From NCBI GenBank assembly GCA_030065715.1, contig JASJDF010000002.1, positions 1 to 54,521 of the forward strand: a DNA stretch of 54,521 nucleotides. The letters run 5' to 3'. Below, in pieces: positions 24,079 through 47,125 of the stretch. The stretch's first letter is position 1; each line of letters begins with the position of its first letter. The stretch comes from Xenococcaceae cyanobacterium MO_188.B19. GTDB taxonomy: Bacteria > Cyanobacteriota > Cyanobacteriia > Cyanobacteriales > Xenococcaceae. The translations under genes were made by a program, and so were the position numbers. The notes under the pieces were generated by a model. That model worked only from the letters and a program-made list of their open reading frames with translations, was not told the origin of the DNA and did not search any database.

Positions 24079-24450
24079 CTAAAGTGTTTTTTCCAAAGTT
24101 TTTTGTTGAGTTTTAGCAATGCCAGGATTTCTAGCTACAGCTTCTTCTATTTGTCCTTTTTTAAAGACTAGATTGGCGTATTTATCCACATCCCTGCCCA
24201 TAGCTTTCAGTCTCTTAGCTACAGGACTTTGTTTGATGGTCTTGATAATTTCCGATTTAGGAACCCCTTGTGCGATCGCTTTTTGAGCTTGCTTGACATC
24301 ATTTTTAGTTGAACTAATTTCAATTTTGGCTTTGGGTTTAATCCCCGATGCTATGGTTTCTACAACAGTCGAAGTAATTGATACTGATTTAACTACTACA
24401 TCTTCAACTTTATTTAGTAAGCTTTGAGTTGCTTGATCGTATTCAGACAT
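24079..24450 (-). CDS. hypothetical small protein with a weaker copy of the same helical module
   Basis: 123-aa ORF. AQKAIAQGVPKSEIIKTIKQSPVAKRL resembles the A.NAL..G...E.V..M.K core. Lies 15 nt downstream of the coupling-protein gene. Confidence 0.5.
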   Translation of the reverse strand: MSEYDQATQSLLNKVEDVVVKSVSITSTVVETIASGIKPKAKIEISSTKNDVKQAQKAIAQGVPKSEIIKTIKQSPVAKRLKAMGRDVDKYANLVFKKGQIEEAVARNPGIAKTQQKTLEKTL

Positions 24451-24465
24451 ATTGCTATTTCTCCT

Positions 24466-26169
24466 TTACGCATAAGTTGCTGCGTAAGCTTCCTGTTCTT
24501 GTTCACTTGGCAGCATTACTTCTGCCATTATTTGACGATTCATTCTTTCTACTTCTAGAGTTGTGTCTTTCAACAAATTTTCAAACTGCTGTCTCAGGAT
24601 AGGAAGCATTTTTTTATCCCATGCCATTTCACATCTTTTCCATAAGCGATCATTCCTTTTGTTAATCCAGACTTTCAATTTACGAGGACGATACTTATAA
24701 CTAGGACTTAAAATTACACATTCTCCTTGTCCCATTCGATTTATTTTGTCTCCTGTGATTAAGGGGGTTTTTTGTAAATGCTCCGTAGTATTTTTGGAGC
24801 TATTTTTTCCTGTTGAACGAGATTGAGTTTTATACCAAACATCTTTTTCTCCCAATGACTGAGCAAATTTATTGGCGGTTTCTGGATGACCTGTATTGAA
24901 GACTACTTTAGTTCCACAACTTGATAACATGGCATCTGCATCATCTCTAGTGTATTTTTTGACTACTTGAGAATTAGATTGATACCCCAATGCCATAAAC
25001 ATTCCATATTCCGCATTTCGATTAATCCACGATTCTGCATCTGGCAGCTTAATTGAGGTAAATTCATCTAGGAACAGTCCCAGTGTCCGTTCTCTTTTGA
25101 CTTTGGCATTGAGGTTTCGCATCATTAGCATATGTATCGCCATTGCTACTAATGGTGCGGTGGCAGCTTGATTTTCCTCGTCTATTTGGAAGAATACTAT
25201 TTGTTTTCCTGTTAGGTCTAGTGGAATGGTACTTTTTAACAGACAGGGCATGATGGACTTATCTACCAAATTCTGAAAATGAGTTACCGCACTTCCGACG
25301 ATCCCTGCTGATGTTGGTGCTGAACCACTGACTGACCTCAATCCTACTGCTGCTTCTCCTGTCCAAGAACTTATATCTACATCATTAAATTGACCATTCC
25401 TTTGCGCTCTGTCTAATCTAATGGCTAAATCTGGTAAGGTTAAAAACTTCCATGCCGATACTAAATCTGGAAATGGTGACTCTTTGCCTAACATAAATAC
25501 TGTCTTTAACAGTGCAATTCCTTGGGGTGAGAAGAAACTATCTTTTCTAGCTCCTGGTTCGCCAAAATTCTGTTCTAGTACTCTCGCCATTTCATAAGCT
25601 GCCTTAGCATCGTCCGCATCTTTCATGAAGTCGAGAAAATTTAGCCCATCACTGTAATCGAATCCTGGTGCATAAACATAACAATCGTAACCCTGAGATA
25701 GTGCATAGGCTGCGTGTTTTCTCATCAAGTTTCCTTTGACATCAAACACCAGCATCGTCCACTCTTGTTCTATACCTGACTTAATAGCTGGGTCAATGAA
25801 GGAGCGAGTCTTTCCTGCGCGAGATCTTCCTACTATAGATATGGCTGGCTGTAAATCACTTAAGACTAATCCTCTCTCTAATTCTAGAGCTACTTTATTG
25901 GGTTTCTGTTGCCTTATTTGTTTTCTACCTCGCTTAGTTCCTGCCCTTATTTCTCCCCCAGTCGCCCATCTGACATCACTTAGTTTTTTTCTATTACCTT
26001 GACTCAACAAGGACAACATTGCTAGTAGTACCATTAGCCCAAAATACCCCATAAACATGGGATTGGCTAATGGCTCTATAACTGGGGCAAATATTTCTTC
26101 TAATCCTACCTGCTGCTGACTTGAAGAGGCTTTAATATCTGTCATGATATGCCCCCATTCCTCCGCCAC
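24466..26169 (-). CDS. virD4: type IV coupling protein (VirD4/TraG/TraD family)
   Basis: 567-aa ORF. N-terminal TM (FMGYFGLMVLLAMLSLL), Walker A VGRSRAGKTRS, Walker B LGLFLDEFTS. The track start is a GTG. An ATG at 26145 preceded by GGAGGA is the more likely start. Confidence 0.85.
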   Translation of the reverse strand: MAEEWGHIMTDIKASSSQQQVGLEEIFAPVIEPLANPMFMGYFGLMVLLAMLSLLSQGNRKKLSDVRWATGGEIRAGTKRGRKQIRQQKPNKVALELERGLVLSDLQPAISIVGRSRAGKTRSFIDPAIKSGIEQEWTMLVFDVKGNLMRKHAAYALSQGYDCYVYAPGFDYSDGLNFLDFMKDADDAKAAYEMARVLEQNFGEPGARKDSFFSPQGIALLKTVFMLGKESPFPDLVSAWKFLTLPDLAIRLDRAQRNGQFNDVDISSWTGEAAVGLRSVSGSAPTSAGIVGSAVTHFQNLVDKSIMPCLLKSTIPLDLTGKQIVFFQIDEENQAATAPLVAMAIHMLMMRNLNAKVKRERTLGLFLDEFTSIKLPDAESWINRNAEYGMFMALGYQSNSQVVKKYTRDDADAMLSSCGTKVVFNTGHPETANKFAQSLGEKDVWYKTQSRSTGKNSSKNTTEHLQKTPLITGDKINRMGQGECVILSPSYKYRPRKLKVWINKRNDRLWKRCEMAWDKKMLPILRQQFENLLKDTTLEVERMNRQIMAEVMLPSEQEQEAYAATYA

Positions 26170-26551
26170 TGCCTAGCAATATGCCAAAGAAGCCCAGGAA
26201 ATATACCAAAGCCACAAACATATAAATCCACAACGTTAGACATACAGCACAACCAAGAACATTATAAAAAGCCTGAAAATAATTATTTCTTCGACTATAT
26301 ATATAGTTGTTTTTAGATATCTTGCCCAACAACAATGTCACAAATGAAGCGATTGGTATGGCAAATATCCATAGACAACCTAACTTCAACAAAAATCCCC
26401 ATACGATCATATAGACGACCGATACCTCAAAAGCTGATATCTCGTCACAATCCACCAACTCCATGCGGTCGTCCATTATTTTTAATCCGAACCACAGTAT
26501 TACAAAAAACCAAAATCCTAAAAATATATAAATCCAGGTATTTATATTCAT
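26132..26551 (-). CDS. hypothetical polytopic membrane protein of the transfer operon
   Basis: 139-aa ORF with 4 predicted TM segments. Overlaps the coupling-protein gene start. Confidence 0.5.
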   Translation of the reverse strand: MNINTWIYIFLGFWFFVILWFGLKIMDDRMELVDCDEISAFEVSVVYMIVWGFLLKLGCLWIFAIPIASFVTLLLGKISKNNYIYSRRNNYFQAFYNVLGCAVCLTLWIYMFVALVYFLGFFGILLGSGGGMGAYHDRY

Positions 26552-26554
26552 GAC

Positions 26555-27040
26555 TTAATCAATTGACCTAACATTTTCAGGTATAGAAAAACCAAGCTGT
26601 TTTAATGCCCAAATCCTTTCTTCACGCCACTGTGAATTTACTTGGGCAACTTCATTGATAAAATTCTGATAAGCTTCTTTGGTAGTATTTTTCAACTCTT
26701 TTTGATACATTCCCAGATTCAGTTGACGGGCAATTTGACGATCGCCCAAAGCTCTGTAAAAAGAAATATCGCTTCCCATGTGATTAAACCACTCTTCTTT
26801 ACACGCGCCGCCATTGAGAGGACGAGAAATTATCAGAGGTGCAGGATAGGGGAAATTCGGTTGATACATATAAATCAAAAAATATTCCTTTTGCTCATTT
26901 TCTGTTTGACTGATAAATTTGCTGATTTCATAGTTTCCCCAATTAGGATAACAAGCTTCTAAACCAGGTATTTTCTGATCAGAATTACCTTGAGCCAAAA
27001 GTATTGAACCTGCTAATAAAATCGTTTTTATTATTTGCAT
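26555..27040 (-). CDS. hypothetical secreted protein of the transfer operon
   Basis: 161-aa ORF with a signal peptide (MQIIKTILLAGSILLAQG). Ends 3 nt before the next gene. Confidence 0.5.
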   Translation of the reverse strand: MQIIKTILLAGSILLAQGNSDQKIPGLEACYPNWGNYEISKFISQTENEQKEYFLIYMYQPNFPYPAPLIISRPLNGGACKEEWFNHMGSDISFYRALGDRQIARQLNLGMYQKELKNTTKEAYQNFINEVAQVNSQWREERIWALKQLGFSIPENVRSID

Positions 27041-27065
27041 AATAATTAATTATTTTGTAATTTAC

Positions 27066-29360
27066 TTAGGAAAAATCAATTACGGATTGTGGATCGATCG
27101 CCTTTCCAGGTATAGTCCAACCTCTTCCCCGATACACATAAACCCCAAAATCAAGATGAGGACCCGTTCCATTACCTGTTGCTCCAGAAAGTGCAATTAT
27201 TTGACCTTGGCTGACACTTTGACCATTTCTTACATTTATTTGATTTAGATGGGAATAGCGGGTTTTAACTCCATTTCCATGATCTACTACTATGGTGTAT
27301 CCATATCCTGAAACCCATCCTGAATATATTACTACTCCACCGTCTGATGCCCTTATTGAAGTATTTGGTGGAGTCGCCAAATCGACAGCAGGATGATAAG
27401 CACTACAGCCGTCACAAGGAGGTGGTCGCCAACCAAAACCACTTGATAATCTATAGCCTGGTGCGGGATTAATTAAAGTTCCGCTAGCGATCCCATCTCC
27501 TTCTTCTGTTGTGGGCTGACACCCTTCAGTCCTACAACTACGATAATCCCGATTTTCCGACCTAACTTGATTCCTAATTTCATAGACAATATCGGGAGCA
27601 GAAGCACGGGAAAATACTAACATTAGACCTCCTTCTTGCACTTTCCAGGGTGTGGGAAAGGAGAAGGCATGGGGAGTACAATGTTCTCCCATGAATGGCG
27701 GATAAACACATATTTGAAAATCCAACCAGATTCTGGCTGTTGCTGGTTCTCCATTTCCTCCTTCATCAATATCTTCTAGAGACAGTTTAACGTGAGCGTC
27801 CGTCGTCCATACTGGAACTCCCGTCCTTTCTTTACCTCCGTTTACCCAACGTAAGAATCCTTTACCTCCTGGCACGGATTGAGATGACCCTTGTATCCAA
27901 GCTTTTCCTTGTACATTTCCTATTCCTCCAATCCCACTCAACACATCTACTATCTCAAAATGTTTACAGCTTTCTTCCACACAAGACTCTGGCAAAAATA
28001 CTTGATTTTTCGTACCTCCTGTCACTACTCGTATAACTGGTGTTTCTACCTCTCCAGCAAAAGGTATATCCAATCTGCCAAAGATATCTCCAGTCAATAG
28101 AATCATCGCCGTATCTGCTACCAACATCGTGCCTGGAGTTTGAGACAGATGACCAAGCTGTGAGAGATACTTGTTGGCTATTTTTGGCACATGAGCGATC
28201 GCTACATCCGCTAATGCGTCAAGATCTCCGACCAATAGACTCTCTATGGGTAATGCTCCTAATGGGGTATCTGCCAATGCTGGCACAGCTTTGATTAGTT
28301 CTTTGGCTAATATTTCTGTCCCTTTTTCTAGAGCATAATCTTGAGCTTGTTGTACTACCGAATCCCAATCTCCATTGATTACACCATTGGCTATGGGGAA
28401 TAATTTATCTGCTGGCAAGCCTTCCAATTCTGGATATTTTTCTAAGAGTTTTTGTATTTGTTCTTGGGATTTTTCTTCTAAGACCCCCGACCAATTCCCA
28501 TTGGCTAATTGTTCTATGGGAATTCCTTCAAATGCTGGATTATCCGCTAATTCCTTGACTAACTTTTCTTGGGCTATGGTTAAAGCTCTCTCTTTAATCG
28601 CTTGTTCTCCATTCCCATTTAATATGTCCGCTATGGGTACATTCTGTAAAACTGGATACCTCTTAACTAATTCTTCTAATCCTCGTTTTTGATAGTTTTC
28701 AACGATGCCGTCCCAATCTCCATTGAGTATTTGACCCACTGGTACTTCACTCAATCTGGGATCTATATCTGCTAGTTTCTCCTGAGCTATTTGTTCGATA
28801 TATTCAGAACTATTGCTAGTTTCTCCTCCATTGATTACGGTTTCGAGTAATATTGGCACATTTGATATTGACTCGTTTTCAAGTTCGGGAAACAACTCGA
28901 AGTATTCTCTCACTGTCATGGAGTTAATGATTCCGATACTTTTAAGGGGAACTTGTTCGATATCTGCCCCTCCATTAGCTGCAATTTCCCTGAGTGTTAA
29001 GTTATCCAGGTCAATTAATTTCTCCAAAGTTGGATTATTCTCAAGATCTCCTACTTTGATAATCTCATCTGGTGTAGCTCCTTGTTGCCATACTCGCTGA
29101 GTATTGTAACGAGTATCAAACTCTTCTCGCTCAAAAGTTATACCTCCTGCTTCTGTTGCCCCTTCCAATTCTTTTAGACTGGGAGATAATTCTCCACTGG
29201 GATCGTAATAAAGCCCTGGTACTGTTCCTAATGATGGCTCTGTTTCTTCTCTTTGTTGTCTCTCTTGGTTTTGGGCTATTACTGTGTCACTTCCCATAAG
29301 CAGTAATAAAAATGTCAACAATAATTTAGGAACAGTTTTTGAAAATCCTGAATACTGCAT
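27066..29360 (-). CDS. secreted M23 (LytM-type) peptidoglycan endopeptidase with an N-terminal repeat domain
   Basis: 764-aa ORF with a signal peptide. C-terminal HPAVDLA...GYTIVVDHGNGVKTRYSHL...GATGNGTGPHLDFGVY (HxxxD and HxH M23 motifs). About 6 degenerate ~38-aa repeats with an (V/I)P(I/V)..(L/I)LNGDWD core, encoded at about 28160-28790. Confidence 0.85.
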   Translation of the reverse strand: MQYSGFSKTVPKLLLTFLLLLMGSDTVIAQNQERQQREETEPSLGTVPGLYYDPSGELSPSLKELEGATEAGGITFEREEFDTRYNTQRVWQQGATPDEIIKVGDLENNPTLEKLIDLDNLTLREIAANGGADIEQVPLKSIGIINSMTVREYFELFPELENESISNVPILLETVINGGETSNSSEYIEQIAQEKLADIDPRLSEVPVGQILNGDWDGIVENYQKRGLEELVKRYPVLQNVPIADILNGNGEQAIKERALTIAQEKLVKELADNPAFEGIPIEQLANGNWSGVLEEKSQEQIQKLLEKYPELEGLPADKLFPIANGVINGDWDSVVQQAQDYALEKGTEILAKELIKAVPALADTPLGALPIESLLVGDLDALADVAIAHVPKIANKYLSQLGHLSQTPGTMLVADTAMILLTGDIFGRLDIPFAGEVETPVIRVVTGGTKNQVFLPESCVEESCKHFEIVDVLSGIGGIGNVQGKAWIQGSSQSVPGGKGFLRWVNGGKERTGVPVWTTDAHVKLSLEDIDEGGNGEPATARIWLDFQICVYPPFMGEHCTPHAFSFPTPWKVQEGGLMLVFSRASAPDIVYEIRNQVRSENRDYRSCRTEGCQPTTEEGDGIASGTLINPAPGYRLSSGFGWRPPPCDGCSAYHPAVDLATPPNTSIRASDGGVVIYSGWVSGYGYTIVVDHGNGVKTRYSHLNQINVRNGQSVSQGQIIALSGATGNGTGPHLDFGVYVYRGRGWTIPGKAIDPQSVIDFS

Positions 29361-29362
29361 GG

Positions 29363-29857
29363 TTATCTTGAAAATAGAGGTTGTACAGTATTTTCAATCT
29401 CGACCTTAGTGTATTGAGGATTCTTATTTACAGGCTTGAATTTAAAGCGATACATCCCCGAAGCCGTATCTACATATAGGAAAGAATAATTTCCCGATAC
29501 AGCTTGCTCGTCTTTAAAATTAATCTTGGGAATCTTGCGAACGAATAGAATAGTTGGGGGAGAACCACTACATCTACTATCTCCAGAACATAAAGTTCCA
29601 TCCATCCCTCGATAGACAATATTACTTCTGTGGGAAATAGTCACCGATGAAATCTGTGTGCCAAAATCAATGGCTAATCCAAAGGGCGTTACGTCTAGTT
29701 CTACTACTCTTTCTTGAGCATTTAATTGGTCGATTCTAATTATATCACTAGCGATCTCGGCAAAGCCGAGGCTCTGCGAGATCGCTGTCTGGCAATCAAT
29801 TGTTAATGGTGCTAATGATGTCAATGCTAATGGTACTAATAGATTTAATGGTTTCAT
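29363..29857 (-). CDS. VirB9/TrbG-like secreted T4SS component (tentative)
   Basis: 164-aa ORF with a signal peptide. VVELDVTPFGLAIDFGTQISSVTISHRSNIVY...ILFVRKIP...SFLYVDTASGMYRFKFKP fits the beta-rich pattern of VirB9 N-terminal domains. Ends 2 nt before the M23 gene. Confidence 0.4.
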   Translation of the reverse strand: MKPLNLLVPLALTSLAPLTIDCQTAISQSLGFAEIASDIIRIDQLNAQERVVELDVTPFGLAIDFGTQISSVTISHRSNIVYRGMDGTLCSGDSRCSGSPPTILFVRKIPKINFKDEQAVSGNYSFLYVDTASGMYRFKFKPVNKNPQYTKVEIENTVQPLFSR

Positions 29858-29882
29858 GATCTTCGCTTATTTATTGTTAAGT

Positions 29883-29930
29883 AACTAGCAACTAGCTAGT
29901 CTCTAGTTGCTAGTTACTAGTCGCTAGTTG
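29883..29930. repeat. heptamer (CTAGTTG-type) STRR-like array forming a 13-bp-arm inverted repeat
   Basis: AACTAGC x2 (29883-29896), then CTAGTTG/CTAGTTA/CTAGTCG/CTAGTTG (29903-29930). Arms 29883-29895 and 29903-29915 are perfect reverse complements. The array supplies the last codons and stop of the VirB10-like gene. Confidence 0.8.
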
Positions 29931-31618
29931 CTCAAATAAAAGTCATCATTTACGAGTACGCGAACTGTCCGATCTCCTTTAAATTGGAAATAAGATAAAG
30001 AGGATGAGCGATTACTATTTCTTCTAGTTCTGTCTCTGACCAAATCCCCTACTCCTTTAGCCACTCCCGATAACCCTGAAGACAGAGGATCATTATTATT
30101 GCTGGTACTAAAAGAGAAACCATCGTTTACTAAGAGACTGCTACTACCACTGTCTAAAGCTCTTTCGACCCCTGGTGCTATTACTGACCCTAAATCTGAG
30201 AGAAAATCCGAGTTCCCTTTTCGCTTTAACTTGGCTTGTAATGGAGAACCATCTTTAGCCAAAATCTCTAAGGTACCATTCGGCACAGGAATCTTCGGCT
30301 CATCGAAGCTTTTGACAATATGGGTTACTTTCATGGTGAATAACCCCGAACTAGAGACTCGTTCGATTTGGGCAATTAGGCGAGTACCAGAGGGTAAAAC
30401 TTCTATGCCCCTGGAATTTTCAAATCCTGACTCTAGATACAAGATATATTTACGGTCTTGGTTGAAACTTTCTTGCGTCCACGCTATTCCTTCTACTAAA
30501 GTCGCTTTAGCAAATGATCCTATATCTAAAACTTTGGTGGAATTGCTCCTAGAATGAGTTTGTTCTGACTCAGTTCGTTTTTTTCTTTTAATTCTTCTAG
30601 CACTTCTGGCTTGGGGAATCAAAACTTCTGAGTTTTCTGTTGATGAACCATTTTCTCCTATCTGTTTTTGAAACTCAAAGGCTTGTGTTAAGAGTGAATC
30701 ATTCCCTCTAGCCAAAATTTCCCCTCCCCTGTTCAATCTGGCTCTTAACTGGTCATCATTAAACAAGGATTGTTGTTTTCTAATTGATGTTAAACGAGAC
30801 TCATTTAACAGTGGTGTTTTCGGTATCCGTCTTATTTCTCTTGTATTAGCAGCTATTGTTGTTTCTGCTGTTGAAGGTTCTACTGTTGAGAGTGGTGGTA
30901 AATGTCTCTCACTCCTGATTAGAGTAGTGGGTGGTGGTGGTATGGGAATAGACGAAGCTACTAATGTTTCTGAATTTGGCTTATTAAAGGATGTTCTGGA
31001 ATAGCCCCTATCTGCTTGTGCCAACCATTCTGTCATTGGGTCGATTTCTGGGATTATTTCCTTTTGTACCACTGGCACTACAGGAGTTCTCCTTACTGCT
31101 TGTCTTCGAGGTGCGGGGCGAGGAGGTTGTGTTACTCTTGCCACTCTTACTGGTGCTGGTTGGGGCGATTGTTGGGATTCCGTTTCTTTTTTAGCTGGAG
31201 CGGATTCTACTGGTTCAATTAATTGAATATCCTTCTGTTGATGAGCCATACTTCTTTGAATATTCATTTCCTCAAGCTGCTGTCTTGCCTCTTCTAATGA
31301 AGCTAGAAGTTGTTCATTTTCTTGAGAATAGGGATTTTCTTCTTGTTTTTCTGCTGCTTGAGGAGAAGTGCTAAATGCCGACCATACTAACCAGATTAGA
31401 GGACATCCTATTAATATGATTGATCCCATTTTTACTGATGGCTTTTTATAGTATGGTACTGATGATAAAGTAAAGTCTTGTACTATTTTCTGTTGTAATA
31501 GCCTCTCATCTGATTTTTTCAAATCTGATGAGTCCTCATTTGACTTCATACCTTCTTCTCCATCAAATAAAACTTCATTAGCTTCTTGTAATGATATTTC
31601 TTGATTTGTTAAAACCAT
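29924..31618 (-). CDS. VirB10/TrbI-like T4SS component (tentative)
   Basis: 564-aa ORF. One TM (MGSIILIGCPLIWLVWSAF), a coiled coil, a Pro/Arg-rich tract (QSPQPAPVRVARVTQPPRPAPRRQAVRRTPVVPVV) and a beta-rich C-terminal domain. This is the classic VirB10 architecture. Confidence 0.5.
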   Translation of the reverse strand: MVLTNQEISLQEANEVLFDGEEGMKSNEDSSDLKKSDERLLQQKIVQDFTLSSVPYYKKPSVKMGSIILIGCPLIWLVWSAFSTSPQAAEKQEENPYSQENEQLLASLEEARQQLEEMNIQRSMAHQQKDIQLIEPVESAPAKKETESQQSPQPAPVRVARVTQPPRPAPRRQAVRRTPVVPVVQKEIIPEIDPMTEWLAQADRGYSRTSFNKPNSETLVASSIPIPPPPTTLIRSERHLPPLSTVEPSTAETTIAANTREIRRIPKTPLLNESRLTSIRKQQSLFNDDQLRARLNRGGEILARGNDSLLTQAFEFQKQIGENGSSTENSEVLIPQARSARRIKRKKRTESEQTHSRSNSTKVLDIGSFAKATLVEGIAWTQESFNQDRKYILYLESGFENSRGIEVLPSGTRLIAQIERVSSSGLFTMKVTHIVKSFDEPKIPVPNGTLEILAKDGSPLQAKLKRKGNSDFLSDLGSVIAPGVERALDSGSSSLLVNDGFSFSTSNNNDPLSSGLSGVAKGVGDLVRDRTRRNSNRSSSLSYFQFKGDRTVRVLVNDDFYLSN

Positions 31619-31640
31619 TTTTATACCTCCTTTTTTTTAG

Positions 31641-31668
31641 CTAGTTGCTAGTTGCTAGTCGCTAGTTG
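31641..31668. repeat. heptamer tandem repeat (CTAGTTG x2, CTAGTCG, CTAGTTG)
   Basis: Four tandem heptamers between the VirB8-like stop (31675) and the VirB10-like start (31618). Shares the 18-mer CTAGTCGCTAGTTGCTCA with 29917-29934. Two more copies lie at 14978-14991. Confidence 0.8.
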
Positions 31669-31674
31669 CTCACT

Positions 31675-32454
31675 TCAAAATTCTGTAATTTGAATAACCT
31701 GTAATCCTTGTTTTTGCATCTGATTGAGTAATTCTCCCAAACTTAAATCGCTGGTTTTATCTCCCCATAAATATTTTTCATCACTAGGTTTAATCGCCCT
31801 TAAGCGAATTACACGATTGAATACTTCATGGGCAATAATTGATTTATCTTGAGCATGGGTTCTTATTGCCACTATTTTTACGTCCCATAGCCCTGGTATT
31901 ACTGCTCCTGATTCATCTTGAACTGCTGTTACTATAGGCTGATAGTAAATATCTATACGGGATTGATATTGATTAGCTATATATTTTGCCAAGGTAAATT
32001 GGTCGCGATATTTTTCATAAGTACTCTTCATATATGCCTCCCGTATTCCTGGCTTGATTGCCAATGAAGCTAGATGAAATTCTATCGGATAATTTACTCC
32101 TTTTTCTGTTACATAATTCTTTTCTTTTGATGATGTTTTTTGCCAAGTAAATGCTATTCTTAACCAAGTTTCACCAAAGTCTTTTAATACTTTTTCTTCT
32201 CGATGCAGAGGATTTACTGGTTTAGCTTTGACCATTTCTGCATCTTGTTTTTGTACATATATATAAGGTTTATTTTGAATGGCTTTATCTAGTTTTCGAG
32301 AATTATTACAACTATTTACCAATAGTAATAAAATCATCCCCCACATTAGTAAAGGTACATAACGTAATGGATTCGGTTTGTCTAGAGGGTTATAACCTTT
32401 AACCTGGGACTTTGAGCCATTATTTGGGTTTTTAACTTCTTCTATGTACATCAC
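31675..32454 (-). CDS. VirB8/TrbF-like bitopic T4SS component (tentative)
   Basis: 259-aa ORF. Short cytoplasmic N-terminus, one TM (LLMWGMILLLLV) and a ~200-aa periplasmic domain. Positioned between the VirB6-like and VirB10-like genes. Confidence 0.4.
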   Translation of the reverse strand: MMYIEEVKNPNNGSKSQVKGYNPLDKPNPLRYVPLLMWGMILLLLVNSCNNSRKLDKAIQNKPYIYVQKQDAEMVKAKPVNPLHREEKVLKDFGETWLRIAFTWQKTSSKEKNYVTEKGVNYPIEFHLASLAIKPGIREAYMKSTYEKYRDQFTLAKYIANQYQSRIDIYYQPIVTAVQDESGAVIPGLWDVKIVAIRTHAQDKSIIAHEVFNRVIRLRAIKPSDEKYLWGDKTSDLSLGELLNQMQKQGLQVIQITEF

Positions 32455-32484
32455 TATTAAAAGTTATACTTTTGACTTATAAAA

Positions 32485-33924
32485 TTATCTTTTCTTGTCT
32501 GCATAACGTGACATTGAATAAATAACTGTAGCAATCGACCCTGTGGCTATTCCTGCTGCCGTATTTATCATTCCTACTGATTGACTTCTAAATGAGGAAG
32601 CTGCTGCTATTCCTCCTGCTGTTACTACGGCAAAAGATACTCCTGGCGCAAATGCTCCTAGTGCCATTAAAAAGCGATCATCTTGTGCCATTATTACTGT
32701 TCCTACTTGTGATAATTGAACTGCCACTACTCCAACTAATGCCACATATGCTAATTTGGCTAGTCCAATAGTGAGAAATTCAATCAACCAAAAATAAAAC
32801 ATATTTTGTTTCCCTGGTATTAATGCCAGTACCACAAAGATGGGGGCAAACAATCCCAACAACCACATCGACATTTCTAAAAACGACATCCACATCCACT
32901 GGGTAAAGCTAAATATCGCCATCCAGCCTTTGCGTTCAAAATTCTTGAAGAAATCTACCATTGAATGATAATTATCTTCAACAGCTTCCTCTGTTACAGG
33001 TTTTGTCTCATAGCCAAAAATTCTTTGCGCTTTTTCTTTCCCTACTACTAAACTTAATTCCCACATTCTGTAGGAAATCCAACCTTTAAAAAATTTACAT
33101 CCCCAACGACAAGCCTTTGATACTTCCGCTTCTTGTTGTTTTTGCTCCATAAAAGCCACTAATTTATCCAAGCATTCCAAATAGCTATAAGCTTGTTCTT
33201 GTTCTGTGGTTAGGGGATTATCGGGATTAGTTGTTGGTCTATCGGCACTTGGTAATACTACTTCTGGTCTTGGCATTTGAAGACATTTATTAGCTTGCCA
33301 TCTTATTTGATCTTTTACCTCCTCTACTAACAATTGCTCTTCTAATGCCGAACGTAGTTGCACTCCTGCTATTTGCTGTTCTACTACCCCCTCTGTCCAC
33401 GAATTTACTATGTCCCTTAATCCATAAGCTAATACTCTCGAATACAATGCCTGATTTGCCATAAATATTAAAATCAAGACCACGGGCAAGAATGATTCGC
33501 TAAATACTTGAACATTATGGGCTATACCATTGGAATTGACCATTTTCTTCCCATAGTCAAATATCCAAAATATTATTCCTACCCCCATCAAAAATCTTAC
33601 TGGGTTGACAAAGGAATATACTGATATATTTGTTCCCGCGTTCGCTCCTACTCCCTCTGGATCGTAGGTAGGGTCAAATGTTGATTTCCACATTTCATCC
33701 CACCAGGCTTGGGTTTTATTCATCCCTTCGATGGTTATGTTGAGTATTTCTGTGTCGGCACTTAATACTGGCTGAATCACAATTATCAAGATTGCTACTA
33801 TCAGTAATAGACCAATCCAGATTCTATATTGGTGAATCTTTTGTATCGGTCTAGTCAACATCATCTTTAAATAGTCCTGGTATAAACATGGCGCGAGACA
33901 TATTTTGCTCGATCCCTCGCTCAA
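32485..33924 (-). CDS. VirB6/TrbL-like polytopic inner-membrane T4SS component
   Basis: 479-aa ORF with at least 6 TM segments and a large central loop. The real start is probably the MM at 33864/33861, which reduces the overlap with the upstream gene from 74 nt to 14 or 11 nt. Confidence 0.5.
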   Translation of the reverse strand: MSEGSSKICLAPCLYQDYLKMMLTRPIQKIHQYRIWIGLLLIVAILIIVIQPVLSADTEILNITIEGMNKTQAWWDEMWKSTFDPTYDPEGVGANAGTNISVYSFVNPVRFLMGVGIIFWIFDYGKKMVNSNGIAHNVQVFSESFLPVVLILIFMANQALYSRVLAYGLRDIVNSWTEGVVEQQIAGVQLRSALEEQLLVEEVKDQIRWQANKCLQMPRPEVVLPSADRPTTNPDNPLTTEQEQAYSYLECLDKLVAFMEQKQQEAEVSKACRWGCKFFKGWISYRMWELSLVVGKEKAQRIFGYETKPVTEEAVEDNYHSMVDFFKNFERKGWMAIFSFTQWMWMSFLEMSMWLLGLFAPIFVVLALIPGKQNMFYFWLIEFLTIGLAKLAYVALVGVVAVQLSQVGTVIMAQDDRFLMALGAFAPGVSFAVVTAGGIAAASSFRSQSVGMINTAAGIATGSIATVIYSMSRYADKKR

Positions 33925-34831
33925 GGCTGTCTTTATATTGTTGATAGTCTTTTTGCTGTCCTAGAGCATCATCTACTTGTGACAACAAATAATTTTGTGA
34001 AGCCATTAGCACCTGTAGTGTTTCTCCTTTTCCATTCAATGCGGTCAATTGAGAACTCAAACCACTCAACTGAGATGATTGATAGGTGGCTATTTCTCCT
34101 AAATAGCTTAATTGTTCGGAATTTCCTGCCATTATGTGGCTTATATCCTTATTCTGGGCTGCTATGGCTTTGAGTACATCTTGAGATGCTTTGGAAGCTT
34201 GGGCTTCACTCGCACTATCTACAACACTATCGGCATAATCTACATTTTCTTTTGCTATCTCTTCTGTTTTGCTATACGCTGAATTAGCTGATTCCGTTGC
34301 TTCATAAGAGGCTTGTTCAATTGCTTGTATTTGTTCGGATTCTGCTGCCATTTTTTCTTGTCCCGTCCTACCAAACACTATTTGGGACAATCTTTGAGGC
34401 ATTTTAGAACGTAGATAATCCGTATATTGCTCTAATTCCCATACTTCTTCTGGTGTTTCTGGATTGGCATAAGGATTCTCTGAGTCTTCTGAATTACTGG
34501 CTTGACCCGATTCAGAGGCTGGATTAATTATTCCTAATGCTCCTAGTATTCCTACTACTGCCGAATCATAATCTCCTGAACTTATTTGACCGTATATTGT
34601 CCGCGCCTTTTCTATTATCGTGGGAGCGAACCTTACAATATCTCCTAGACCCGAATCTCCATTTTCTACTTCTATACTTGCTGTTTCCGCTCCTCCTGGT
34701 TGGGTCGAGCCATAAGCTACTAGGGGTAACATTACTGCCCCTACTAAGCTTATTTCCAGAATTCTCAGACTAATCCTTTTTCTTGCTTTTACTTTTGGAG
34801 TATTACGCCACTTGGTTCTGTTCTTCTTCAT
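33851..34831 (-). CDS. secreted helical Q/S/E-rich protein, candidate VirB5/TrbJ analog
   Basis: 326-aa ORF. Basic N-terminus plus a signal-like TM (LEISLVGAVMLPLVAYG). Located between the VirB4 and VirB6 homologs, where trbJ/virB5 sit in the Trb/VirB operons. Confidence 0.3.
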   Translation of the reverse strand: MKKNRTKWRNTPKVKARKRISLRILEISLVGAVMLPLVAYGSTQPGGAETASIEVENGDSGLGDIVRFAPTIIEKARTIYGQISSGDYDSAVVGILGALGIINPASESGQASNSEDSENPYANPETPEEVWELEQYTDYLRSKMPQRLSQIVFGRTGQEKMAAESEQIQAIEQASYEATESANSAYSKTEEIAKENVDYADSVVDSASEAQASKASQDVLKAIAAQNKDISHIMAGNSEQLSYLGEIATYQSSQLSGLSSQLTALNGKGETLQVLMASQNYLLSQVDDALGQQKDYQQYKDSLERGIEQNMSRAMFIPGLFKDDVD

Positions 34832-37800
34832 CTAAAACTACCTCTGGATATATTGATTGCATTGGTAAACCTTGTCTTTTGGCATTGGCATTGAGCCTTG
34901 AAAATTCTTTGATAGCTTCAACCTTATTTTGGAACTGGCTCATTACTCTTTTACGAGCCTTGTCTTCCTGTTCATCTGTTGCTCCCAAGCCCAATACCAT
35001 TTCACAAGCTGGATGGGTTACTTCTATATGCTCGTCTCCTCTTCTTAAGTACCAATAGGATTGCAATAGGGTTTTATTAGGCAGATAACTCATACTGGTG
35101 TAACGTTCATAAATCTCCCTTCTAAAACCCACTTCCAGTCCTGTCATTTCCTCTATTGCTGTAGTTTCTATATGTCCTCCCAATATATTGTCTAAGTTTT
35201 TGAATATTTCTCCTCCTGAACAGGAATTTAAGATTGTGGCAATCTCTTGGGCAGCAATTAAGAAGTTACATGACCATTTTCTTCCATGTACTGGTATAAT
35301 CCCTGTTTCTCTCGCAAATGCTGGAAATTTGTATAATACCGTTCCCTCATCAATCCCTAGTAACGATCTTTTGGCATTAAATGCTGCTCTATATAAAACA
35401 TTTAACCCCGACATAGCGTAGATTAGAGAATCTGCACTATCCGACACCTGGGTTAGCCCAATTACTAATATATCCACCCTTGTATCGAAGGAACTTATGC
35501 CATTTATTGACCTGCCTAACGCTGTTTTAAGAATCCCTCTTAGTTGGGTAATAATTACATCTATGGTGTCATTAACTAAGATGCTTATTCTGCCTTGTTT
35601 GCTATCAATTAACTCTCCAAACCATTTCTCGGCATATTCTACGAAATCTTCTAATATGGGCATCTTCGAGTAGGCATCACTACCAAACCCCCCTGCTATT
35701 GCCTCGTCATATCTGACTTTAATGTGAGGGGCATCTAGGAAATGGCGGTAGCAATCTGTTAATAATGATGCCACTATCATTTCCCTGTCTGGATTCTGTA
35801 CTGTTCCCATTACTAATGTTTGGAGCAATCGTACATGATTATCGAATACTTGTTCCCATACTTCTTGCTTTTTTTGTGGGTCTTTAATATGTCTCAAATC
35901 TGGCAACTCTATAATGTTTATGCGACTTCGGCGCACGTTATGATAGGCTGCTTTGAATCCTAATTTTTGCAGTAGCGGTACTAATATCGTGTAGGTTGAA
36001 GAACCATCGGGACGAGGAAAATCGAATAATACTGCTAGATATCCCCTCACTATGTACTCTAGCAAGATATCTACAATCACATTGGATTTTCCTGTTCCTG
36101 ATTTAGCTATTATCGCCGTGTGATTTTTCTGGTCTGCTATATCTATATATATTGGTGTTGATAATTCTCTGGTGACAAACATTACTCCTTTTTTATCCAA
36201 CTCTCTAATTTTCACTAGGGGGATACTCGGTAATGCTTGATAACTAATATATTTTTGACGACGATGATTCGGTTTAGTTAAAAATGCTTCCCATTCATAG
36301 TTGGCTGATTGTAACCAGATATCTTCTGTACAGTTTTGTTCTGTTTCTACTGCTGCTCCTGTTATTTGTCCTGCCAGATTGTCTAAGTCTTGCTCTAATT
36401 CTTCTGGTGTATCTCGATATAACCAGATTCCCATACTCACCCAATATGGTATGTTTTTATCCGCTAATAACCCCCTTGCTTCTACTGCTTTTTCTCTAGT
36501 TATAGTCGCCATCACATCCACTGTTTGTTTTTTGGCTGCTTCGGCTTCTCTTTTGATTGTGCTGGATATGGTTCGGTCTAAGTTGACTATCTCAAATCCC
36601 GTGCGGTCTGCGGTTATTTCCGTTATAACCCGACAGTCATATATTCCTGCCGTTGTTCCTGCTAATATATTCCAGACATATTTTAGGTACCCCAGGCTTA
36701 CGCTTTCTCGGTCTTTGGGAAATTGGCTGATTTGTCCAATGCGAATAAATCCCCCATATTTATTCTTCACTGGATAATACATTTTATCCCGATCAAATTG
36801 TGGCACTGCGCTTATTCCCCCTTGGGGTTGGAACAAGCTTCCCAAAATATGAGTTCCCCACTGATTGATTATCGGGTCGATTAACCCTGTTTCTCCATAC
36901 ACCACATATTGTGGTACTGGTGGCACTTCGGGATTTTGTTTAGTTAATTCATGCAGTGAGAGATAATCTTTTCGATACATATCCTTCACTGTCATCGTTT
37001 CAGCTTTGACCCCAAATCCCCCCTTATTATCTGATAGCAAAAAATTCACTCTTTTATAGGCATAGTTATAGGCATATCTAATTACCTTGTTCCATGCCCT
37101 TCGTGAATCAAAATCTTGTCCTTTTATCGCCCCTACCAATGGCTGTGTTAAAGATAGCATTTCTTCCAGCCAATTTTTCGTTACTGCATATTCCCCCCCC
37201 AATACCATTCTGTATTTGGCATATATCGTAATCGTGTGTTTTAATAGCCTTCCTGATTCTTTTAATTCTCTGGCTCTTTTTCCCCTACTTTTTATTGAGG
37301 CGGAACTTAATGGGTCTAACTTTTTTGACACCAATAAACTCGCCTGCATTTTCAAATATTCTTCACAATCTTTATCTAGCTCCTCATATATTTTCAAATC
37401 CACACCTTGAGGCATCTGATTTAGCGCATTGGTGCAGGCTTCTATTACTGAATCCGATTCTCCTGGTGTCATCGAAGGACTATGTCCTTCTATCGTCCAG
37501 CCAAAGATGAACATTACTCTTGGTCCTTGTCTTAGTAGTTTGAATCCTACTTCGACTCCCCCTAGTTCTATTTGCCCATAAGTCAACAGTTTGTACTTTG
37601 ACTCTATGTGATGATATGGTACTTTCTTGCCTTTGATTTTGTATTGTGTAACCAATCTCTTTGGTCTTTTGGGTCTTGGTATTCCTCCTTTACTTATTTC
37701 TAATTCTGGTTCTACCGACAGATAGCGGTTCGGCTTCTTCATACTTTCCAGAAAGAATGTTGGGTCATTTCCTGTCAATACCCACCATCCCCCATAGATA

Positions 37801-37964
37801 CAGGCAAATGACAATATTCCTTTGATTGGACTAATGATTATTATCGGCAGACATAACATGAATATTATTCCACAGGATAAAAGCTGCTGGGGAGTGATAA
37901 ATCCTACCCCCAACGCCGTCCCGATCATGTCATTGACTTGACTTTCTAATTCTTTTTCTCTCAT
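34803..37964 (-). CDS. virB4: VirB4/TrbE-family T4SS ATPase with an N-terminal VirB3-like membrane segment
   Basis: 1053-aa ORF. Two N-terminal TM segments (GIIFMLCLPIIIISPI, ILSFACIYGGWWVL), Walker A IIAKSGTGKSN, Walker B SLLGIDEGTVLY. Confidence 0.85.
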   Translation of the reverse strand: MREKELESQVNDMIGTALGVGFITPQQLLSCGIIFMLCLPIIIISPIKGILSFACIYGGWWVLTGNDPTFFLESMKKPNRYLSVEPELEISKGGIPRPKRPKRLVTQYKIKGKKVPYHHIESKYKLLTYGQIELGGVEVGFKLLRQGPRVMFIFGWTIEGHSPSMTPGESDSVIEACTNALNQMPQGVDLKIYEELDKDCEEYLKMQASLLVSKKLDPLSSASIKSRGKRARELKESGRLLKHTITIYAKYRMVLGGEYAVTKNWLEEMLSLTQPLVGAIKGQDFDSRRAWNKVIRYAYNYAYKRVNFLLSDNKGGFGVKAETMTVKDMYRKDYLSLHELTKQNPEVPPVPQYVVYGETGLIDPIINQWGTHILGSLFQPQGGISAVPQFDRDKMYYPVKNKYGGFIRIGQISQFPKDRESVSLGYLKYVWNILAGTTAGIYDCRVITEITADRTGFEIVNLDRTISSTIKREAEAAKKQTVDVMATITREKAVEARGLLADKNIPYWVSMGIWLYRDTPEELEQDLDNLAGQITGAAVETEQNCTEDIWLQSANYEWEAFLTKPNHRRQKYISYQALPSIPLVKIRELDKKGVMFVTRELSTPIYIDIADQKNHTAIIAKSGTGKSNVIVDILLEYIVRGYLAVLFDFPRPDGSSTYTILVPLLQKLGFKAAYHNVRRSRINIIELPDLRHIKDPQKKQEVWEQVFDNHVRLLQTLVMGTVQNPDREMIVASLLTDCYRHFLDAPHIKVRYDEAIAGGFGSDAYSKMPILEDFVEYAEKWFGELIDSKQGRISILVNDTIDVIITQLRGILKTALGRSINGISSFDTRVDILVIGLTQVSDSADSLIYAMSGLNVLYRAAFNAKRSLLGIDEGTVLYKFPAFARETGIIPVHGRKWSCNFLIAAQEIATILNSCSGGEIFKNLDNILGGHIETTAIEEMTGLEVGFRREIYERYTSMSYLPNKTLLQSYWYLRRGDEHIEVTHPACEMVLGLGATDEQEDKARKRVMSQFQNKVEAIKEFSRLNANAKRQGLPMQSIYPEVVLDEEEQNQVA

Positions 37965-38017
37965 TTTTAGCCTCCGCAGCTAGAAACATTCATCCAGACT
38001 GATGAATGCTCACTAAC

Positions 38018-38638
38018 CTAACTTGCTGCTGTTCCTAACATTACACTCGTAACTACCGTTACTCCCCCTGCAAAGATCAAGAAGCCAAATACTGGATTGA
38101 TTACTGCGGACAATGGCTGTTGTTCGTAGCCCAACTGATATGCCACTCTTCCTATTGTTCCGATGAACGCCAACAATAAACCCACAACCATAAATCCTAT
38201 TACTTGACAGATTAAAATACTTAACTTACCGTCCCCAATTCCTCCAAAAGTTATCGTACCAAACACATCTGAAACAAAACTTGTCACTCTCGAAAATAAA
38301 CCATTAGCCGTGCAAGCTTTATCATTGGCTCCAACTGTATCATTGGCTATTACTGGATTTGCCATTAGCGAAAACAATAAAGTTTGAAAAATCGCGATAC
38401 TCCAACGCTGTTCTCCGATTATGGGCTTCAGCTTTCTTAGCAACAATAAATAAGCAATCGTCGCCACTGCCGAGCCATACAACATACTATATATTGGATT
38501 TCCTATTACCCACACCATTGCCGTGGCTATCGATACTATAATTATCGACTTCCATTCTTTCTTGATTCCTGCCCATATATCTAGAAGGCTGTTTTTCTGT
38601 GACATCGTTTTACTTAAAACATTACTATTCGTGGACAT
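38018..38638 (-). CDS. pilin-like (VirB2/TrbC-like) paralog with N- and C-terminal membrane extensions
   Basis: 206-aa ORF. Its core ANDTVGANDKACTANGLFSRVTSFVSDVFGTITFGGIGDGKLSILICQVIGFMVVGLLLAF aligns with the 103-aa ORF upstream. An alternative start MSQKNS (codon 12) mirrors MSQKKS of the paralog. Confidence 0.5.
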   Translation of the reverse strand: MSTNSNVLSKTMSQKNSLLDIWAGIKKEWKSIIIVSIATAMVWVIGNPIYSMLYGSAVATIAYLLLLRKLKPIIGEQRWSIAIFQTLLFSLMANPVIANDTVGANDKACTANGLFSRVTSFVSDVFGTITFGGIGDGKLSILICQVIGFMVVGLLLAFIGTIGRVAYQLGYEQQPLSAVINPVFGFLIFAGGVTVVTSVMLGTAAS

Positions 38639-38669
38639 AGTCTTCTCCTACAATCTTCTTACTTTTGAC

Positions 38670-38981
38670 TTAATCAATTGAGCGCAATTGAATCCATGTT
38701 GCCAACAGTGCTTGGATGAACCCCACCAACAAACCCACGACCATAAACCCTGTTAATTGGCAAATTAAACTGTTTAACGCTCCTACTTCAATTCCGCCCA
38801 AGGTTATCGTCTCCAACACTGTTACTAAAAAATTTGTCACTCTCGAAAACAGACCAGTAACCGTACAAGTAGTGACATTATTTACCACTGTATCCTTGGC
38901 TAATACTGAATTGGTGACTATCAAAACTATTGCCGTGGCTGTTCCTAATGTGATTATCGACCTTGATTTTTTCTGTGACAT
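38670..38981 (-). CDS. pilin-like small membrane protein (VirB2/TrbC-like)
   Basis: 103-aa ORF, first gene of the T4SS string. Signal-like N-terminus ending VLA/KD, two hydrophobic helices, two conserved Cys. Confidence 0.5.
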   Translation of the reverse strand: MSQKKSRSIITLGTATAIVLIVTNSVLAKDTVVNNVTTCTVTGLFSRVTNFLVTVLETITLGGIEVGALNSLICQLTGFMVVGLLVGFIQALLATWIQLRSID

Positions 38982-39244: not shown

Positions 39245-39383
39245 TTATTAGTTAATTTATGTACTCTATTTTCTGTTCATAAATTAGTTAATTTTTAGAC
39301 ATTTCTCTCTGGCGCATCCCTGATTTTTCTAGACTTTTTTTCTTTTCTCTCCGAATTTTTCCCTGTTCAAAAATTAGTCAATT
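39245..39383. promoter_or_regulatory. repeated TTAGT(T/C)AATT boxes upstream of the resolvase-like gene
   Basis: CTGTTCATAAATTAGTTAATT (39273-39293) and CTGTTCAAAAATTAGTCAATT (39363-39383) are 19/21 identical direct repeats 90 bp apart. A third TTAGTTAATTT lies at 39248-39258. Confidence 0.5.
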
Positions 39384-47098: not shown

Positions 47099-47125
47099 CC
47101 AGAAGCAAGAAAACTTAACTTCTGG
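47099..47125 (+). promoter_or_regulatory. hairpin overlapping the putative Shine-Dalgarno of the rep gene
   Basis: CCAGAAG (47099-47105) pairs with CTTCTGG (47119-47125). The 3' arm overlaps GGAG (47124-47127), which lies 7 nt before ATG 47135. Confidence 0.35.

Follow-up and report, generated by a model that had tools for sequence, protein, structure and literature searches.

The 54,521-nt contig JASJDF010000002.1 of Xenococcaceae cyanobacterium MO_188.B19, analysed over its full length and called the window below, carries a block of minus-strand genes at 24079-38981 that very probably encodes a conjugative element's mating-pair formation (MPF) apparatus, of the class MPF_C known only from cyanobacteria, together with its coupling protein. 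This type IV secretion system (T4SS) adds a divergent member to a class that comparative genomics had already delimited, and it is no novel type of machine; class and gene content were both predicted in 2011-2014, and current knowledge is not overturned. MPF_C is one of eight recognized conjugation classes, and horizontal transfer in cyanobacteria is relevant to toxin and natural-product gene clusters, to the ecology of blooms and to the engineering of strains. The locus described here is a compact, apparently complete example, with relaxase, type IV coupling protein (T4CP) and MPF genes within about 24 kb, and it represents a branch far from the Nostoc model.

Organization of the locus

The interval studied spans 14,903 nt, is transcribed from 38981 to 24079 and holds 13 intact co-directional open reading frames (ORFs), named g01 to g13 in transcription order. 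Their topology (transmembrane (TM) and signal-like segments) was called from hydropathy.

38670-38981, minus strand: g01, pilin-like candidate, 103 aa, with a signal peptide and a hydrophobic hairpin
38018-38638, minus strand: g02, pilin-like candidate, 206 aa, with a long N-terminal leader, two TM segments and a domain paralogous to g01
34803-37964, minus strand: g03, VirB4 ATPase with a putative VirB3 fusion, 1053 aa
37575-37964, minus strand: VirB3-like N-terminal module of g03, residues 1 to about 130, with two TM segments
34803-37574, minus strand: VirB4 ATPase part of g03
33851-34831, minus strand: g04, secreted protein of the alr7207 family at the VirB5/TrbJ position, 326 aa
32485-33924, minus strand: g05, polytopic inner-membrane protein of the alr7208 family at the VirB6/TrbL position, 479 aa, probable true start at Met20/21
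31675-32454, minus strand: g06, VirB8-like bitopic protein (alr7209 family), 259 aa
29924-31618, minus strand: g07, VirB10/TrbI homolog (alr7210 family), 564 aa
29936-30520, minus strand: C-terminal TrbI domain of g07, residues 367-561 (Pfam)
29363-29857, minus strand: g08, secreted all-beta protein of the alr7211 family, 164 aa
27066-29360, minus strand: g09, alr7212-family domain plus M23 peptidase, 764 aa
27399-29360, minus strand: N-terminal part of g09 (about 650 aa), periplasmic domain of the alr7212 family, containing internal repeats and a core rich in Cys and His
27135-27398, minus strand: M23 metallopeptidase domain of g09, residues 655-742 (Pfam)
26555-27040, minus strand: g10, secreted protein with a signal-like N-terminus, 161 aa
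26132-26551, minus strand: g11, small membrane protein with four TM segments, 139 aa
24466-26169, minus strand: g12, VirD4-type coupling protein (alr7213 homolog), 567 aa, probable true start at ATG 26145
24079-24450, minus strand: g13, conserved soluble protein, 123 aa

Neighbouring ORFs overlap or sit 2-66 nt apart, so tightly that non-coding sequence totals about 281 of 14,903 nt and coding density reaches about 98%; such a co-directional array is well beyond chance. These values agree with an earlier interpretation made from the letters alone (the sequence-only reading), which had described about 15 kb of co-directional, overlapping or tightly spaced ORFs. It had listed twelve genes, leaving the 123-aa ORF at 24079-24450 undescribed. 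GC skew and AT skew of the plus strand are negative throughout 23-39 kb, in keeping with a run of genes on the minus strand, and the array extends past the interval to 19989 with five further ORFs (g14-g18). Signal-like N-terminal segments were predicted in g04, g08, g09 and g10. A promoter and terminator scan was set aside: promoter-like sites were fewer than in shuffled controls and terminator-like sites about as frequent, and because neither count rose above the controls, nothing was concluded from them.

Homology to the MPF_C model locus

Plasmid alpha of Nostoc sp. PCC 7120 (pCC7120alpha) is the model of MPF_C (Guglielmini et al, 2014; PMC4027160), and its alr7206 and alr7213 are VirB4 and VirD4, respectively (PMC8600333). 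A protein-by-protein blastp comparison of this locus with the window yielded eight matches, all of them collinear: g03 with alr7206 (E 1e-75), g04 with alr7207 (5e-4), g05 with alr7208 (8e-11), g06 with alr7209 (3e-3), g07 with alr7210 (5e-7), g08 with alr7211 (1e-4), the N-terminal part of g09 with alr7212 (3e-17) and g12 with alr7213 (2e-74). The class was described by eight class-specific profiles, five of which are distantly homologous to VirB3, VirB6, VirB8, VirB9 and VirB10 (PMC4027160). Among the eight MPF_C-specific families (alr7204, alr7205 and alr7207-alr7212), six have clear matches in the window, alr7205 has a weak one and alr7204 was undetected. Iterated hidden Markov models (HMMs) run over 49 cyanobacterial loci recovered the families of g05, g06, g07, g08, g09 and g12 in about 30-40 of them.

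Relatives of the locus were found in cyanobacteria. A megablast search of the 15-kb interval against PLSDB gave no nucleotide match. At the protein level, tblastn with the 1053-aa g03 hit 129 plasmid records; the 40 matches listed and the ten commonest genera are all cyanobacterial, with identities of up to 36.8% over 97% of the query in Acaryochloris, about 30% in Leptolyngbya and about 25% in Nostoc and its relatives (25.7% over 80% for pCC7120alpha). A one-genome-per-species scan with VirB4 returned 47 loci, again all cyanobacterial, the closest being from an uncultured Synechococcales (60%), Chroococcus sp. FPU101 (57%) and a Pleurocapsa metagenome-assembled genome (MAG; 56%). The sequence-only reading had proposed the MPF_C class, and the homology of g03 to alr7206, the collinearity with alr7207-alr7213 and the restriction of relatives to cyanobacteria all speak for it. 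In a neighbour-joining tree, g03 groups with the Chroococcus, Pleurocapsa and Synechococcales proteins and then with those of Acaryochloris; this group is sister to the Nostocales proteins, including alr7206, and lies far from TrbE and TraB.

The same comparisons bear on the view that the locus falls outside MPF_C, in an unnamed sister lineage of its own, so that the Nostoc-type and the window/Acaryochloris-type systems would be different classes. Identity of the window VirB4 is about 24-25% with alr7206, compared with 38% with Acaryochloris and 58-68% with members of its own clade. The architectures also differ: in the window VirB3 is fused, the alr7212-family protein ends in an M23 domain and the relaxase is MobF, whereas in pCC7120alpha VirB3 is a separate 99-aa gene, the alr7212 protein lacks the M23 domain and the relaxase is MobV. 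The pilin-position proteins of the two loci have no detectable sequence relation, and g10, g11, g13 and g14 (the latter just downstream of the interval) are without a counterpart in Nostoc. Against a separate lineage, seven successive genes are homologous to, and collinear with, those of the model; tblastn identities run continuously from 37% down to 22% across cyanobacterial plasmids and do not fall into two isolated groups; the cyanobacterial VirB4s are monophyletic with respect to the MPF_T outgroups; and MPF classes are drawn broadly, by VirB4 clade (PMC4027160). The window also resembles alr7204-alr7213 of pCC7120alpha in having VirB10 before the small beta-protein, in the missing VirB11, in a DUF3854 protein nearby and in its cyanobacterial host. 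We regard a separate class as very unlikely and keep the locus within MPF_C.

Pfam was run on all ORFs of the cluster and on nearly every window ORF of at least 120 aa (all but two ORFs of about 130 aa at 5336-6153), and NCBIfam on 12 of the 13 cluster ORFs and seven other window ORFs. Neither library assigned the locus to MPF type T, F, I or G. The links to MPF_T at profile level consist solely of a sub-threshold TrbI match and generic T4CP domains. No operon protein matched the F-type families TraC, TraB, TraK, TraV, TraH, TraN, TraU or TraW (TIGRFAM included), and the T4CP reached F-type TraD only below threshold, with 58.6 bits against a cutoff of 521. The G-type Tfc/ICE families and the I-type TraU and type IV pilus set were likewise without a match in libraries that cover types I and G incompletely. 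VirB2/TrbC, VirB3, VirB5, VirB6/TrbL, VirB8 and VirB9/CagX gave no Pfam or NCBIfam match in the window, and NCBIfam added nothing further for the remaining operon proteins. The parts are nevertheless related to those of known T4SSs: VirB8 by fold, VirB10 by family profile and VirB4 by profile-profile comparison. In PLSDB, MOB-suite types pCC7120alpha (NC_003276.1) as MPF_T and an Acaryochloris plasmid with a full T4SS (NZ_CP064925.1) as merely mobilizable, so that routine typing mislabels or misses MPF_C.

Compared with MPF_T systems (VirB/Tra of R46/pKM101 and Trb of R751), the window shares VirB4, the VirB8 fold, the VirB10/TrbI domain and a VirD4-type T4CP. As in R46, the order is pilin, B3, B4, B5 position, B6 position, B8, and the T4SS is paired with a MobF relaxase. 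Unlike MPF_T, the window has no VirB11, VirB1 or VirB7, an M23 endopeptidase takes the place of the lytic transglycosylase, and VirB10 precedes the B9-like gene, which inverts the order of VirB/Trb operons; similarity to VirB9 is limited to a trace in the N-domain, with no VirB9 C-domain, and the VirB4 proteins are 14-16% identical. The sequence-only reading had seen an echo of Trb operons in the gene order. The order resembles VirB operons (R46) as much, and that of IncP R751 (trb C, D, E, F, G, H, I, J, K, L) differs; the order also agrees with that of Ti-type trb operons.

Components assigned by motif, profile or fold

The g03 protein is firmly assigned as a VirB4 ATPase on sequence grounds. 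It carries a Pfam DUF87/HerA P-loop (24 bits) with the Walker A motif AKSGTGKS, and G625, K626 and S627, together with the Walker B residues D872 and E873, do not vary among three distant homologs. In hhalign, the VirB4 family profile aligned with TrbE (R751) plus TraB (R46) over 591 columns, with 93.4% probability and an E-value of 2.5e-7. The R751/R46 references used with hhalign comprised two sequences each and are shallow, to the extent that even true VirB10 and VirB8 pairs scored weakly.

For the N-terminal region of about 130 aa, the evidence lends modest support to a VirB3-like module fused to VirB4. Two TM segments lie within residues 20-57, and the region aligns with the separate 99-aa alr7205 family (E 5e-4, 31% probability, 67 columns in hhalign), sharing with it the motif VN..(I/L)G…G. 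The 939-aa Nostoc VirB4 lacks a VirB3-like N-terminus, its alignment beginning at residue 132 of g03, and alr7205 is the VirB3 profile of MPF_C (PMC12102498). The fusion named in the sequence-only reading is accordingly secure for VirB4, by profile comparison and Walker motifs, and modest for VirB3.

The g12 protein is firmly assigned, from its domains, as a VirD4-type coupling protein, which is what had been proposed for it. Three Pfam domains score above threshold (T4SS-DNA_transf, 112.5 bits; TraG-D_C, 100.6 bits; TrwB_AAD_bind, 92 bits), a Walker A motif GRSRAGKT lies at residue 114 and LFLDE at 365, and a TM segment is predicted at 34-52.

By sequence, g06 showed no VirB8 match in Pfam, with all family members scanned, or in a PDB profile search. 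Its AlphaFold2 model, built from a 41-sequence alignment with a predicted local distance difference test (pLDDT) score of 81.8, pairs an N-terminal helix (33-61) with an alpha+beta domain. In a Foldseek search of the PDB, the 32 best matches are all periplasmic domains of the VirB8 family (probability 0.98-1.00, target TM-score 0.51-0.77), including TrwG 4jf8 (E 8.8e-4), VirB8 2cc3, DotI, CagV, an IcmL-like protein, TraM and TraE. The model supports g06 as a VirB8-family protein, as the earlier label of a bitopic VirB8-like protein had it, and provides fold-level evidence that the alr7209 family is VirB8.

Profiles likewise support g07 as VirB10/TrbI. It has one TM segment at 61-79 and the Pro-rich linker tract noted before. 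The protein itself scores 17.7 bits against Pfam TrbI (cutoff 35), yet aligns with profile positions 5-187 of 188, and 13 of 14 family members match TrbI, with a best E-value of 6.9e-17. In hhalign, the cognate VirB10 reference scores best for the family (E 0.006, 182 columns).

For g08, the evidence weakly suggests a possible relationship to the N-terminal domain of VirB9. Its family comprises 715 clusters at 50% identity (E up to 0.001), and no member with a source annotation has an informative name or Pfam domain. CagX/VirB9 is the commonest Pfam family among 113 members, but only 3 of the 113 match it (best E 0.011), and g08 itself has no CagX match. For the family, hhalign ranks VirB9 first among eight references (E 0.004-0.008 over 63-81 columns, in the N-terminal domain only), and a deeper VirB9 profile, made mostly of near-identical TrbG sequences, barely shifted this result. 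With 164 aa there is no room in g08 for a VirB9 C-domain. Nostoc-type homologs of g08 carry a helical C-terminal extension of about 90 aa with scattered helix-turn-helix-like Pfam matches, which is absent from g08. The earlier label of a small VirB9-like protein is weakly supported at best, by the hhalign ranking and the few CagX matches of the family, and not by Foldseek. The supposed VirB9 of MPF_C would at best be related to the VirB9 N-domain only, and the question of how the outer-membrane channel is assembled becomes sharper. PDB profile-HMM searches with the families of g08, g06, g07, g05 and VirB4 returned P-loop-level or spurious matches only.

The peptidase-fused alr7212-family protein

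The M23 peptidase of the sequence-only reading is present (Pfam Peptidase_M23, 98.8 bits; NCBIfam MepM-like, E 6e-25) and makes up just the C-terminal 110 or so residues of the 764-aa g09. It is likely to be a cell-wall-opening enzyme, judging from the domain, and may stand in for VirB1. The HxxxD motif is present (HPAVD, residue 656), and HLD at residue 735 replaces the usual HxH. The same HLD variant occurs in the Acaryochloris homolog, which suggests a functional variant and not decay.

The larger N-terminal domain contains internal repeats of about 45 aa and belongs to the alr7212 family, found in about 30 loci. Across 12 diverse homologs, C460, C465, H467, E469, C551 and C561 are invariant. 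A search of its profile against the PDB gave only weak matches to internalin leucine-rich repeats (E about 1e-4). The Nostoc alr7212 proteins have no peptidase domain; the Acaryochloris homolog combines VanY with M23.

Pilin-like and other small proteins

The g01 protein is a short paralog of g02, and their C-terminal domain is common to g01, g02 and a gene of about 215 aa in relatives (phmmer E 1e-11 to 3e-14), which have this single gene upstream of VirB4 where the window has two. Orthologs of g02 stand upstream of VirB4 in loci L003-L006 and in the metagenomic contig L052 (GCA_029979785.1), with E-values of 1e-40 to 1e-50 and 48% identity; g01 is 53% identical to the pilin-position gene of L052. 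No Pfam or NCBIfam family matched g01, and the g02 family gave no hhalign signal to TrbC/VirB2 with the shallow references. Position and topology suggest that g01 and g02 may be pilins.

The g04 protein has a signal-like segment at 20-38, and its profile, built from a strict-membership set, aligns with the Nostoc alr7207 family (95.7% probability, E 8.6e-9 in hhalign; shared motif ASQ(D/N)VLKAIAAQN). Against TrbJ/TraC it gave no signal with the shallow references (hhalign E 0.16-0.36). The g05 protein has about six TM segments and its family is present in 41 loci by iterated HMM; no link to VirB6/TrbL emerged from Pfam (all family members), the PDB or hhalign. The labels VirB5-like for g04 and VirB6-like for g05 fit position and topology, which hint weakly at these roles. 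The hhalign comparisons of g05 with VirB6, g04 with VirB5, g02 with VirB2 and the g03 N-terminus or alr7205 with VirB3 were all without signal, and these negatives are weak because the reference alignments are shallow. Topology and position thus agree with the VirB6-like, VirB5/TrbJ-like and pilin-like labels of the sequence-only reading, and homology to the T4SS counterparts did not appear.

Pfam and NCBIfam gave no match for the remaining genes of the interval, g10, g11 and g13. At the g10 position, L052 encodes a 163-aa protein without detectable similarity to g10. The g11 protein is 31% identical to the same-position L052 gene (E 2e-15), and g13 occurs at the same position in L052 (64% identity) and, as a weak match, in Acaryochloris.

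Absent components and integrity of the operon

As had been noted from the sequence, VirB11, VirB1 and VirB7 are not recognizable: among the window ORFs scanned with Pfam and NCBIfam, none matched the T2SE/VirB11, SLT/VirB1 or VirB7 families. The intergenic gaps are too short to hide a VirB7 gene inside the operon. VirB11 is usually missing outside MPF_T.

These absences could mean that the locus is an intact-looking but non-functional remnant, one that lacks, for example, an outer-membrane lipoprotein, a VirB11-like ATPase or a functional origin of transfer (oriT); the HLD in place of the canonical HxH in the M23 domain and the lack of conservation of g10 in L052 would fit such a state. All 13 ORFs are open, however, and their catalytic motifs are conserved, the same gene set without VirB11 and VirB7 recurs in dozens of cyanobacterial replicons, including the model locus, and the HLD variant is shared with Acaryochloris. 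On balance a remnant is unlikely, and we continue to read the operon as an MPF_C apparatus.

Relaxase, candidate oriT and the case for conjugation

Downstream of the interval lie the following features:

23326-24069, minus strand: g14, conserved downstream gene, 247 aa, beyond the interval yet within the conserved module
19989-21182, minus strand: g18, with a weak HipA_C kinase-like match
15062-20017, plus strand: MobF (TrwC-type) relaxase-helicase, 1651 aa, convergent on the operon, with a C-terminal DUF3854 (aa 1380-1506)
14904-14975, no strand assigned: candidate oriT, three overlapping inverted repeats of 10-17 nt, 82-100% complementary

The relaxase matches Pfam TrwC (243 bits), AAA_30 (170 bits) and DUF3854 (147 bits) as well as NCBIfam MobF (254.6 bits against a cutoff of 100). 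Its gene and the end of g18 share 29 nt, and both T4CP and relaxase are present within 20 kb. The inverted-repeat cluster sits 90-160 nt upstream of the relaxase start and may, by its sequence and position, be an oriT. Residues 1179-1509 of the relaxase are 35% identical to a 1227-aa DUF3854 protein of pCC7120alpha, encoded one gene downstream of alr7213. DUF3854 is also a domain of CyRepA-type plasmid replication proteins of cyanobacteria, so that transfer and replication functions may be linked; supposing that DUF3854 has a replication role, the relaxase might couple transfer with plasmid replication.

The g14 protein is 62% identical to its L052 counterpart and 42% identical over 105 aa to that of Acaryochloris, at the same position in both. 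Between g14 and the relaxase the window has four further genes (g15-g18), which are missing from L052, where the relaxase directly follows g14. An 81-aa stretch of g18 is 37% identical to the g14 homolog of L052.

The relaxase also bears on whether the T4SS might serve protein secretion, DNA release or uptake, or contact-dependent competition in place of conjugation. Transfer has been shown for no MPF_C system, and the contig also encodes a two-partner-secretion-like ShlB transporter and large unknown proteins, as a non-conjugative role might have it. Such a role is nonetheless highly improbable: a VirD4 coupling protein lies inside the operon, the convergent MobF relaxase-helicase is full-length and its pairing with the operon is kept in L052 and in the Acaryochloris plasmids, and the relatives are overwhelmingly plasmid-borne.

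Several points weigh against a conjugative MPF_C system. The class assignment rests on homology to the model locus and not on the formal CONJScan/MacSyFinder classifier, and the VirB4 tree has just two outgroup sequences, both MPF_T. The g03 protein falls below every curated VirB4 family threshold in Pfam and NCBIfam, the DUF87 P-loop alone passing. Homology support for VirB5, VirB6 and pilin roles was not found, and g02 has no detectable relation to the protein at the alr7204 position in Nostoc (hhalign E 0.23). The match of g08 to VirB9 has an hhalign probability of just 5-9%, and its all-beta AlphaFold2 model (pLDDT 65.7) gave no Foldseek match (best E 1.2), which is no strong negative because the confidence of the model is only moderate. 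Neither a terminal overlap, which would have supported circularity, nor a tRNA was found in the 54.5-kb contig. Conjugative activity of the locus is itself presumed, and functional study of MPF_C does not go beyond a marker transfer from 1994: a 2025 review describes functional studies as lacking and the system as hypothetical, apart from a 1994 marker-transfer report in Anabaena (PMC12282955), and our literature searches found no newer functional study of MPF_C. With that exception, the review agrees with the earlier statement that the class is without experimental characterization.

A sub-clade of MPF_C

Within MPF_C, the locus falls into a sub-clade whose hosts are unicellular, pleurocapsalean and Acaryochloris-type cyanobacteria. 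The sub-clade is set apart from the Nostoc model by the probable VirB3-VirB4 fusion, the peptidase fusion and a MobF instead of a MobV relaxase. Its members include unannotated T4SS loci of Acaryochloris marina plasmids, such as NZ_CP064925.1, and of contigs from Chroococcus sp. FPU101, from Pleurocapsa and Synechococcales MAGs and from GCA_029979785.1. They share the VirB3-VirB4 fusion of about 1050 aa (37-68% identity), the g04-g09 order, the peptidase-fused alr7212-family protein, a T4CP that is 46-85% identical, conserved g13 and g14, and the MobF relaxase. Unlike these relatives, the window has the extra pilin-like paralog g01 and the extra g15-g18, and its g10 is not conserved; Acaryochloris differs in the VanY domain added to its g09 homolog. 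Most proteins of the sub-clade loci are hypothetical or without a family match, the exceptions being the T4CP, the peptidase-fused protein and a pentapeptide-repeat protein.

Contig L052 is particularly close, keeping the 13-gene order with just one pilin gene, and g14 and a MobF relaxase directed towards the operon come next. Leaving aside g09 and g10, its genes are 31-85% identical to those of the window (VirB4 67%, g08 74%, T4CP 85%, g13 64%, g14 62%, relaxase 67.5%, g11 31%), and g10 is not recognizably conserved. This conservation argues for selection on the module as a unit. Taken across the class, the comparison indicates that VirB3, VirB4, alr7207-7212 and the T4CP are universal, and that pilins, hydrolase, relaxase type and small accessory genes vary.

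The features that we list for the sub-clade are the VirB3-VirB4 fusion, the M23-fused alr7212-family domain, duplicated pilin-like genes, the additional conserved genes g11, g13 and g14, and a MobF relaxase with DUF3854. We suggest, tentatively and with considerable doubt, that it may be a structurally distinct T4SS in which the outer-membrane complex consists of VirB10, a beta-protein equivalent to the VirB9 N-domain only and the alr7212-family protein, without VirB7 or a VirB9 C-domain. If so, its outer-membrane core would be unlike that of any solved T4SS.

Proposed mechanism

Apart from the identities established above for VirB4, VirB8, VirB10, the T4CP, the M23 domain and the relaxase, the following steps are drawn from homologous systems, and the roles given to g01, g02, g04, g05, g08 and the N-domain of g09 are proposals. 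The MobF relaxase would nick oriT, possibly at 14904-14975, and remain on the transferred strand, and the VirD4-type g12 would recruit the relaxase-DNA complex. At the inner membrane, the fusion ATPase g03 may power assembly and pilin extraction together with the polytopic g05 and the VirB8-fold protein g06. VirB10 (g07) would span the periplasm through its Pro-rich linker and may form the outer-membrane part with the small beta-protein g08, while the M23 peptidase of g09 would open peptidoglycan locally, replacing the VirB1 transglycosylase. The likely pilins would be g01 and g02, and g04 is likely to be a pilus-associated or periplasmic subunit.

Flanking genes

Two genes lie just beyond the start of the operon:

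39400-39963, divergent from the operon: serine resolvase gene
39842-41161, plus strand: DUF3991 plus Toprim protein, 439 aa

Contig L055 has the same upstream half as the window, including the divergent resolvase, which may be a conserved neighbour or a regulator since it occupies the same position in both. The 420-nt region between the operon start and the resolvase gene contains an 18-nt inverted repeat at 39247-39292. The DUF3991 plus Toprim protein is 34% identical to the C-terminal half of the pCC7120alpha protein annotated as MobV relaxase, which suggests a primase-like module that is free-standing in the window and fused in pCC7120alpha.

At 2000-7000, the window has a G+C content of 28-30%, compared with 36-41% elsewhere, and contains several small ORFs without a family match. 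The segment at 44524-53876 encodes a ShlB/POTRA outer-membrane transporter, a 1227-aa protein, a CHASE2 histidine kinase and a DUF928 protein, all unrelated to the T4SS as far as tested. The 1227-aa protein of the window (47135-50818) matched no Pfam or NCBIfam family. It resembles neither Acaryochloris CyRepA1 nor the Nostoc DUF3854 protein, and was therefore rejected as a CyRepA-type replication protein. The flanking set of CHASE2 kinase, DUF928 protein and ShlB transporter fits a cyanobacterium.

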